Source of the DNA: Shigella phage Henu10
Direction: 5' to 3' (one strand)
Sequence record: OQ791282
Length of the DNA stretch: 47,865 nucleotides
The position numbers and the translations under genes are program-made. The notes under the pieces are model-generated. The model saw only the letters and a list, made by a program, of their open reading frames with translations. It made no database searches and was not told the DNA's origin. Shown piece by piece: positions 6,240 to 6,264 of the stretch. Every line of letters starts with the position of its first letter. The first letter of the stretch is position 1.

Positions 6240-6264
6240 GATTTTAAAACACGCTTTTAAAATC
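6240..6264. repeat. 25-bp AT-rich dyad-symmetric motif GATTTTAAAACACGCTTTTAAAATC (copy 1 of 4)
   Basis: Perfect 10-bp inverted arms around a CACGC/GCGTG core; related copies at 14622..14645, 18264..18284, 22373..22396. Confidence 0.6.

Follow-up and report, generated by a model that had tools for sequence, protein, structure and literature searches.

Upstream sites that recur at several late promoters are known from a number of bacteriophages. In phage phi29, the site for protein p4 at the late promoter A3 is centred at about -82. It is an imperfect inverted repeat in A-tract DNA, located far upstream of a late promoter of the host sigma-A type and between divergent early and late promoters; its consensus is CTTTTT-N15-AAAATG and the readout is largely indirect through the A-tracts (PMC3100819). 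Here, we present a computational analysis of a comparable element in the genome deposited as Shigella phage Henu10 (sequence record OQ791282), a stretch of 47,865 nucleotides which is called the window throughout. A recurrent AT-rich dyad with a GC-rich core occurs at four sites of the window, each time upstream of minus-strand late genes, and is probably the distal part of a composite late-gene promoter, acting as double-stranded DNA and as the site for a phage-specified regulator.

Phage-specific motifs at a fixed distance from several late promoters, as found here, are also used by Ogr of P2 and Delta of P4, by C of Mu and by RinA of staphylococcal phages. These regulators represent zinc-finger, Mor/C, and ArpU-like families, and their sites are nearer to the promoter, at about -55 or -43. 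Pfam and PHROGs scans of 17 window proteins, as well as the annotations of the related phages PT15 and RAP44, contained none of these families. RinA acts upstream of terS (PMC3152322), and in a similar manner one of the four sites (site 4) heads the terminase block. The Bacteroides element CTnDOT offers another comparison: its excisionase-type proteins Xis2c and Xis2d, bound upstream of promoters, activate these and increase the transcription of tra and mob (PMC3809561). Nevertheless, A3 of phi29 is the closest functional parallel to the window, which shares with it an imperfect inverted repeat in A-tract DNA far upstream of a host-type promoter and, at sites 1 and 2, the position between divergent promoters. 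The sequences are unrelated, the arms are separated by 15 bp in phi29 and by a 5-bp GC centre here, and host phylum and promoter type (-33/-7 in the window) differ as well. A homologue of p4 was not found for the window phage.

A query of 3.8 kb from the window (15770-19583) matched the Riemerella phages vB_RanS_PT15 and PT03 with 100% identity and RAP44 with about 97%. This near-identity makes the window a temperate siphovirus of the RAP44/PT15 type from Riemerella anatipestifer (Flavobacteriales), and its host is therefore a flavobacterium. RAP44-like phages are temperate (PMC12169736), and an integrase gene is located at 38229-39545. Promoters are not mentioned in the literature on RAP44-like phages, a search for late promoters of flavobacterial phages was likewise silent, and a full-text search of open-access papers and bioRxiv returned nothing on late-gene timing in phages of Bacteroidota.

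The dyad is composed of GATTTTAAAA, a core read as CACGC or GCGTG, and TTTTAAAATC. Its recurrence at four sites, claimed in the original prediction, could be read directly from the sequence in every case:

6240 to 6264, minus strand: site 1 dyad, GATTTTAAAACACGCTTTTAAAATC, a perfect palindrome (10+5+10); the plus strand reads GATTTTAAAA-CACGC-TTTTAAAATC
14622 to 14646, minus strand: site 2 dyad, GATTTTAAAAGCGTGTTTTAAAATA, with one mismatch; the core is CACGC in the late-gene sense
18264 to 18288, minus strand: site 3 element, GATTTTAAAAGCGTGTTTTATTTAC; promoter-proximal arm and core are intact (CACGC-TTTTAAAATC in the late sense), the distal arm is degenerate
22373 to 22397, minus strand: site 4 dyad, GATTTTAAAACACGCTTTTAAATTA, with two mismatches

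In the late-gene direction the site 1 dyad is GATTTTAAAA-GCGTG-TTTTAAAATC, and over 25 bp sites 1 and 2 form an exact inverted repeat. As had been proposed, the core is found in either orientation, with CACGC on the plus strand at sites 1 and 4 and GCGTG at sites 2 and 3. Site 2 begins at 14622 as predicted and ends at 14646 instead of 14645; its last base coincides with the A in the start codon ATG of a divergent gene for a protein of 88 amino acids (aa). The frequency in shuffled sequences had been suggested as a check on chance occurrence, and the observed copies are far above this expectation. Allowing up to three mismatches, the 25-mer matched three times in the window (0.01 expected from shuffles). 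The 21-mer matched four times (0.57 expected), a number reached by none of the shuffles.

Dyad copies of 25 bp thus exist as proposed; the repeated unit, however, is an oriented and conserved module of about 95 bp, which becomes apparent when the four regions are aligned in the sense of the minus-strand genes and which was also obtained as repeat family D3. It contains, in this order, the dyad, an A/T block (AAAAnyTTTrnTTTTT), the block CTATTGTwA, and the box TAnnTTTG:

6170 to 6264, minus strand: site 1 module, with the dyad, the A/T block AAAAACTTAATTTTT and the putative -7 box TAAATTTG at 6177 to 6170; no consensus -33 TTG
14552 to 14646, minus strand: site 2 module, with the putative -7 box TAGTTTTG at 14559 to 14552 and a -33 TTG at 14582 to 14580 (20-bp spacer)
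18194 to 18288, minus strand: site 3 module, with the putative -7 box TAATTTTG at 18201 to 18194 and a -33 TTG at 18224 to 18222 (spacer of 20 bp)
22303 to 22397, minus strand: site 4 module, with the putative -7 box TACTTTTG at 22310 to 22303 and a -33 TTG at 22332 to 22330 (19-bp spacer)

At all four sites, exactly 72 bp separate the end of the core from the -7 box on the late-gene strand. An nhmmer search of the window with a profile of the module returned these four full-length copies and no fifth one, and the composite pattern A4-N5-TTTTAAAAT-N63-TAnnTTTG matched four times, always on the minus strand, versus 0.00 matches expected.

The host does not use promoters of the sigma-70 type. 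In Flavobacterium psychrophilum, TAnnTTTG is the -7 box of sigma-A promoters and was mapped at -12 to -5 (PMC9723704). This Bacteroidota box is present in all modules, and three of the four (sites 2, 3, and 4) also have a -33 TTG at a distance of 19-20 bp, with TTT found at the expected place in site 1, for which the transcriptional start is predicted at about 6165; the predicted starts at sites 2, 3, and 4 are near 14547, 18189, and 22298, respectively. The consensus is informative in this genome because TAnnTTTG is enriched in the intergenic DNA of the window (25 observed, 8.8 expected) and typically precedes start codons by 22-39 nt. In the modules, these distances are 22 nt for TAAATTTG, 39 nt for TAGTTTTG, 23 nt for TAATTTTG, and 8 nt for TACTTTTG, the last one measured to a remnant of the NinG gene. 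Judged by its match to the consensus, the downstream half of each module is an ordinary Bacteroidota sigma-A promoter. With the -7 box at -12 to -5, the dyad is consequently expected at about -99 to -75, centred at about -87, and the A/T block at about -74 to -60. The Bacteroidota consensus promoter has no described conserved element between -60 and -100, and the modules of the window differ from it in this respect.

All four modules face late genes, namely the NinG/terminase block, the portal gene, the scaffold, capsid and tail genes, and the tape measure gene. The statement that three copies lie about 90-110 bp upstream of the tape measure, scaffold, and portal genes holds, with 92, 109, and 93 bp, respectively, between the start of the dyad and the minus-strand start codon. 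Site 1 precedes the tape measure gene (1967-6148, minus strand, 1393 aa, start codon at 6148), which is followed by the remaining tail genes and the lysis genes. Site 2 is located upstream of a scaffold-like gene (13857-14513, start at 14513), to which the major capsid gene and tail genes are joined, and site 3 upstream of the portal gene (16813-18171, start at 18171). Sites 1 and 2 belong to divergent intergenic regions, each after an opposite-strand cassette which interrupts the late operon. Two copies directly follow minus-strand stop codons, again in agreement with the original prediction, site 3 after terL (18285) and site 4 after a gene of the WYL_2 family (22398). Site 4 marks the boundary between early and late genes and is followed by the NinG remnant and by ASCH-like, PAPS-reductase, ParB-like, terS, and terL genes. 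The remnant (22182-22295) has 37 codons here; the RAP44 protein has 142 aa, and those of the examined relatives have 138-140 aa. The truncation is the reason why site 4 seems to be 188 bp away from the next full-length gene (188 bp from 22185), although the start of the remnant at 22295 is at a distance of 78 bp.

The dyad was not found at about eight other predicted promoters of the window, which belong to early genes and opposite-strand cassettes, and pattern and profile searches of the window detected no copy in the immunity and early region. Within the site 4 module, the core and its flank recur in inverted form as AAAGCGTGTAT between the dyad and the -33 element (22338 to 22348, plus strand), and equivalent second copies, AAAAAACCGC and TTTAAACCGC, are present in the site 4 modules of relatives. 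The 13-mer AAAAGCGTGTTTT has an additional exact copy at 7527-7539, inside the plus-strand gene 7183-8016, and a copy with one mismatch 20 nt before terL (19603-19615). Neither place has a -7 box at a distance of 72 bp or the other parts of the module, and both copies may be chance occurrences.

A motif search in related phages had been named as a further check. In the IMG/VR database, the exact 21-mer was detected solely in near-identical Riemerella prophages and was therefore uninformative for a comparison, so that more distant relatives were collected by means of the portal protein. These comprise prophages of R. columbina (with a portal identity of 79%), R. columbipharyngis (78%), and a Kaistella metagenome-assembled genome (L008, 72%), as well as a human-microbiome group (68%) and the contigs L022 and L023 (58%); two further phage contigs from public sequencing runs were found through homologues of the 88-aa protein. 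The module was recovered upstream of the NinG, portal, and scaffold genes in the module-bearing relatives, i.e. R. columbina, R. columbipharyngis, the Kaistella genome, the human-microbiome group, and the two contigs from sequencing runs. The human-microbiome relatives possess an extra module between the tail-fibre gene and a holin-like lysis cassette. In one of them (L030, IMGVR_UViG_3300008406_000354), a module reading AAAAA-ACCGC-TTTTAAAAA with an offset of 72 bp (1703-1792, minus strand) is located directly after a tail-fibre gene of 981 aa and before a cassette of membrane-protein and lysin genes, and late lysis genes therefore carry the element as well. A suspected insertion at site 3 in phage CRP12 turned out to be an alignment artefact.

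Nineteen modules from seven lineages could be aligned without gaps. Eighteen of them have an offset of 72 bp between core and -7 box, and in the remaining one it is shortened by a helical turn to 61 bp; the sequence between the two elements has diverged. What is conserved is the unit (r)TTTyAAAAA, a GC-rich centre of 4-5 bp, TTTTAAAAT, and the A/T block, together an imperfect dyad; it is elaborated into a perfect palindrome of 25 bp solely in phages of R. anatipestifer. All core variants are GC-rich (GCGTG, CACGC, GCGGT, GCGTC, GCCGT, CGTGT, ACCGC, ACGGT, and CCCGC), and each contains a CpG at position 2-3 or at the symmetry-related position 3-4. Since the CpG is one step off the symmetry axis, the element reads alike in both directions, which explains the two core orientations; the flipping of the core is most simply explained by a reader with two-fold symmetry. 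The proximal arm and the A/T block show 80-87% identity even among non-orthologous copies in different genomes, compared with 47% for the part from -60 to -7. A scan of IMG/VR with the composite pattern gave 71 matches, 24 with a GC-rich core containing CpG, all from this phage lineage, and 47 of AT-rich background. The signal of concerted evolution within genomes is weak: the distal arm has an identity of 0.71 within genomes and of 0.61 between orthologues, and the core follows orthology and not the genome.

In the sister contigs L022 and L023, the dyad was not found within the 10-kb flanks. Instead, the motif TGCAAGTAACTC occurs three times, each time exactly 36 bp before the -7 box TATTTTTG, upstream of NinG-like, scaffold, and tail genes:

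L022, at 3194, 11642-11673, and 18449: copies of TGCAAGTAACTC
L023, at 486, 9069-9100, and 14096: copies of TGCAAGTAACTC

At the scaffold promoter of these contigs the motif is extended to a full palindrome, AGTTACTTGCA-N11-TGCAAGTAACT. The same architecture with another upstream word points to lineage-specific pairs of factor and site, and the sequences indicate that each lineage may have a late-gene factor of its own together with the matching site.

The fixed spacing of 72 bp, the occurrence at late genes only, the conservation as a DNA motif without a hairpin, and the analogous motif of the sister lineage all fit the binding site for a late-gene regulator which the original prediction had offered as one possibility, and from these features we infer that the dyad is bound by a protein which activates rather than represses. 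That the element is linked to the promoter and functions as DNA can be stated with high confidence, its role as an activator site with moderate confidence. As expected for the latter, a single motif recurs at several late promoters and not at early ones, at a fixed distance to the core promoter. In the proposed mechanism, the host RNA polymerase would use the -33/-7 core promoter, and a two-fold symmetric, phage-lineage-specific DNA-binding protein would bind the dyad, always on the same side of the helix with respect to the polymerase. The bound protein would switch on or strongly boost the genes for morphogenesis and packaging late in the lytic cycle. Copies of the module would be placed where the long minus-strand late operon needs a fresh start, namely at the early/late boundary (site 4), after the opposite-strand cassettes (sites 1 and 2), and before the portal gene (site 3). 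The temperate lifestyle implies that the late promoters must be conditionally silent, which argues for a dedicated regulator.

Two phage genes are candidates for encoding a trans-acting factor:

14646 to 14912, plus strand: gene of the 88-aa protein, divergent from site 2; homologue of RAP44 gp39 (YP_007003625.1), predicted excisionase/MerR-like winged helix-turn-helix protein
22398 to 22712, minus strand: gene of the WYL_2 family (PF10902; gp40, YP_007003639.1, in RAP44), 104 aa, the last gene before site 4

The 88-aa protein is the best candidate for the factor which binds the dyad, an identification made with low confidence. Its predicted fold would be similar to that of solved excisionase/MerR-like winged-helix proteins. 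The window protein gave no Pfam hit, and the R. columbina orthologue scored 13.6 bits (E 0.083) with HTH_17 (PF12728), below the cut-off of 27; a profile search of the PDB found nothing, and the Foldseek results were non-significant. Homologues are encoded divergently from the scaffold promoter in all eight module-bearing loci in which they were sought (L006-L008, L013, L017, L019, L025, and L028), and in each lineage with a junction read the start codon is at most about 15 nt from the dyad. No homologue was found in the 10-kb flanks of L022 and L023. The family forms 21 clusters among 5.8 billion sequences and thereby mirrors the narrow distribution of the motif. If the 88-aa protein binds the dyad, its own leader would be covered too, resulting in auto-regulation. 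At site 2, putative -7 boxes of opposite strands are located 5 bp apart within 14539-14559 (TATCTTTG on the plus strand at 14539-14546, TAGTTTTG on the minus strand at 14559-14552), so that use of the late promoter for the scaffold gene and use of the probable 88-aa gene promoter are expected to be mutually exclusive; this arrangement is kept in R. columbina, R. columbipharyngis, and L028.

Xis2c and Xis2d of CTnDOT, as well as Cox of P2 acting on P_LL of P4, are small excisionase/MerR-like winged-helix proteins, and the same fold is predicted for the 88-aa candidate. In contrast to the latter, whose gene is part of the structural cluster and 24 kb away from int, these proteins also function in excision and are encoded beside the integrase. 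The CTnDOT sites are not reported to resemble the palindrome of the window, and the cox box of P2 does not match it on inspection. The WYL_2 protein, encoded in synteny with site 4 in most relatives, is the second candidate; it has no known DNA-binding role at promoters. It was the significant match in Pfam and PHROGs scans around site 4 and in the early region, in which the remaining matches were to PHROG families of unknown function, and a 152-aa protein had a weak ASCH match below the Pfam cut-off. The ASCH-like protein encoded after NinG was dismissed as a candidate, being conserved without being a known DNA-binding regulator. A host architectural protein is another possible binder of the dyad, whereas the prophage repressor is an unlikely one because the CI-type immunity region has no copy of it. 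Taken to its full extent, this line of thought leads to a previously undescribed late switch in RAP44-like siphoviruses of Weeksellaceae, in which an excisionase-fold protein, encoded backwards in the structural cluster, would bind a CpG-centred palindrome about 87 bp upstream of every late promoter, cover its own leader and, in Riemerella phages, act at overlapping and mutually exclusive promoters, while the sister phages would have swapped both the factor and its site (TGCAAGTAACTC, at a fixed 36 bp). This complete scenario is speculative, and we regard it as possible but doubtful.

Several points weigh against an activator bound at the dyad. With a good -33/-7 pair in place, three of the four promoters may not need an activator, and for a simple activator a position centred at about -87 would be unusually distant. 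The protein on the dyad could also be a repressor, a roadblock, or an architectural protein of the host. Moreover, the -7 and -33 boxes are assigned by consensus, and the relatives were inspected in 10-kb flanks. The outer distal arm is poorly conserved outside the phages of R. anatipestifer and decayed at site 3; strict two-fold symmetry is thus not essential. With respect to the 88-aa candidate, excisionase-fold proteins usually bind direct repeats as monomers and not palindromes.

Among the alternatives, it appears rather unlikely that the dyad is the operator of a phage repressor or of the 88-aa protein which keeps the late promoters off, blocks read-through, or auto-regulates the 88-aa gene. 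The dyad is located in the leader of this gene at site 2 in all lineages, the late -7 box overlaps the divergent one at Riemerella site 2 in a mutually exclusive manner, and sites 3 and 4 come directly after the stop codons of upstream genes, a place at which a roadblock would prevent read-through. However, a site centred at about -87 leaves the polymerase at the late promoter unoccluded, a CI-type repressor should also bind at the immunity and early promoters, which have no copy, and the rigid helical phasing, including the copy shorter by one turn, fits a contact with the polymerase better. Unlikely is also an upstream element working independently of a bound protein, by phased A/T tracts, curved DNA, or a far-upstream UP-like sequence which constitutively boosts transcription via RNA polymerase alpha or wrapping. 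It is true that the conserved 45 bp consist of alternating A- and T-tracts (A5-N5-T4A4-N-A5-N-T3-N2-T5) and that the A/T block beside the dyad is the best-conserved part. UP elements, which are contacted by the C-terminal domain of alpha, are usually positioned at -40 to -60, yet the conserved block was found beyond this range (about -99 to -60), and it combines dyad symmetry with a GC core and its invariant CpG, traits foreign to UP elements. In addition, the element is confined to late genes of a temperate phage, for which it would be harmful to express lysis and virion genes constitutively, and the sister lineage has a specific 12-mer containing GC in its place.

A function in recombination or mobility, as homology patches of the kind considered for promoter stem-loops of T4-type phages, as cassette ends, invertase sites, or a miniature mobile element, is very unlikely, even though sites 1 and 2 border opposite-strand cassettes and are exact inverted repeats over 25 bp, and R. 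columbina carries an extra divergent cassette right at site 3. There are four copies only, in one orientation and at a fixed spacing relative to the promoter, and their orthologous positions are kept across genera. The annotations of PT15 and RAP44 list a tyrosine integrase and no serine invertase, target-site duplications were not seen, and the confinement of the exact 21-mer to near-identical Riemerella prophages in IMG/VR argues against mobility as well. Cassette exchange at the repeated promoters may be a by-product and not the function. The original prediction had also considered a weak bidirectional intrinsic terminator or an RNA processing hairpin, in which a transcribed A/U stem with a loop of 5 nt ends or cleaves transcripts. 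This reading was rejected and has very little probability left, since the hairpin is not conserved, the stem consists entirely of A/U, and no U-tract follows it. Site 1 does fold at -10 kcal/mol (z-score -4.1), sites 2 and 4 fold weakly at -4.2 kcal/mol, and sites 3 and 4 are directly 3′ of stop codons of co-directional genes. But the folds of sites 2 and 4 are not significant, site 3 has no hairpin (z-score +0.5), and a hairpin across the core is present in none of 15 copies from relatives, for which z-scores are near zero. There is no co-directional gene upstream of sites 1 and 2 to be terminated, and GC-rich terminators of the usual kind are present at other places of the phage genome (15157-15191 and 24070-24104). 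In the Kaistella genome and in L025, such a GC-rich terminator is located immediately upstream of the element, which therefore begins and does not end a transcription unit there. The loop differs with the orientation, yet the distance to the downstream -7 box is fixed, a constraint needless for a terminator, and an Rfam scan of the window gave no family match.

Further observations concern the surroundings of the sites and the genome as a whole. The cassette adjacent to site 1, which encodes an Ig-like lipoprotein, a small open reading frame, and an Ant antirepressor, is paralogous to a block of the early region. It is part of a large inverted partial duplication (6291-9454 on the plus strand, 23223-25557 on the minus strand) which includes segments of 334 nt (91%), 106 nt (92%), and 112 nt (86%). 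A promoter was duplicated along with the cassette, as TATCTTTG is present at 6299 and 25542. The palindrome CTATCACAAAGATAG, beside GTTGCGAAC, is repeated at 25079-25110, 25157-25188, and 7050-7077 and overlaps the -7 boxes TATCTTTG at 25093 and 25171 on the minus strand; it is probably the operator of another, early regulator. A small opposite-strand gene pair in the tail region (1432-1964, plus strand), annotated in RAP44 as HigB toxin and helix-turn-helix antitoxin, represents a moron-like insertion into the late operon which is not followed by a dyad module.

A 286-codon open frame crosses the junction between the end and the start of the window (1-830; 43804-47865), which suggests that the 47,865 bp make up one complete genome in circularly permuted form. 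Similarity was seen between positions 1-253 and 44002-44254 (97%) and between 43804-44103 and 47541-47840 (94%); these are repeats within tail-fibre paralogues, and a tail-fibre repeat seems to be collapsed in the GenBank record of PT15 (44,128 bp). At 32246-32324, about six copies of a 12-nt tandem repeat similar to GTATCAGAAACT are located within the minus-strand open reading frame 31846-32622, which is shortened in the PT15 annotation.

In summary, the element provides a handle on late-gene control, consisting of four defined sites with predicted transcriptional starts, a 72-bp geometry, natural variants, and two candidate proteins. R. anatipestifer is an important pathogen of ducks against which RAP44-like phages are under development, and knowledge of the late promoters helps phage engineering as well as the annotation of prophages in genomes of Flavobacteriales. 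The element opens the so far unstudied late-gene control of Bacteroidota phages to direct tests.

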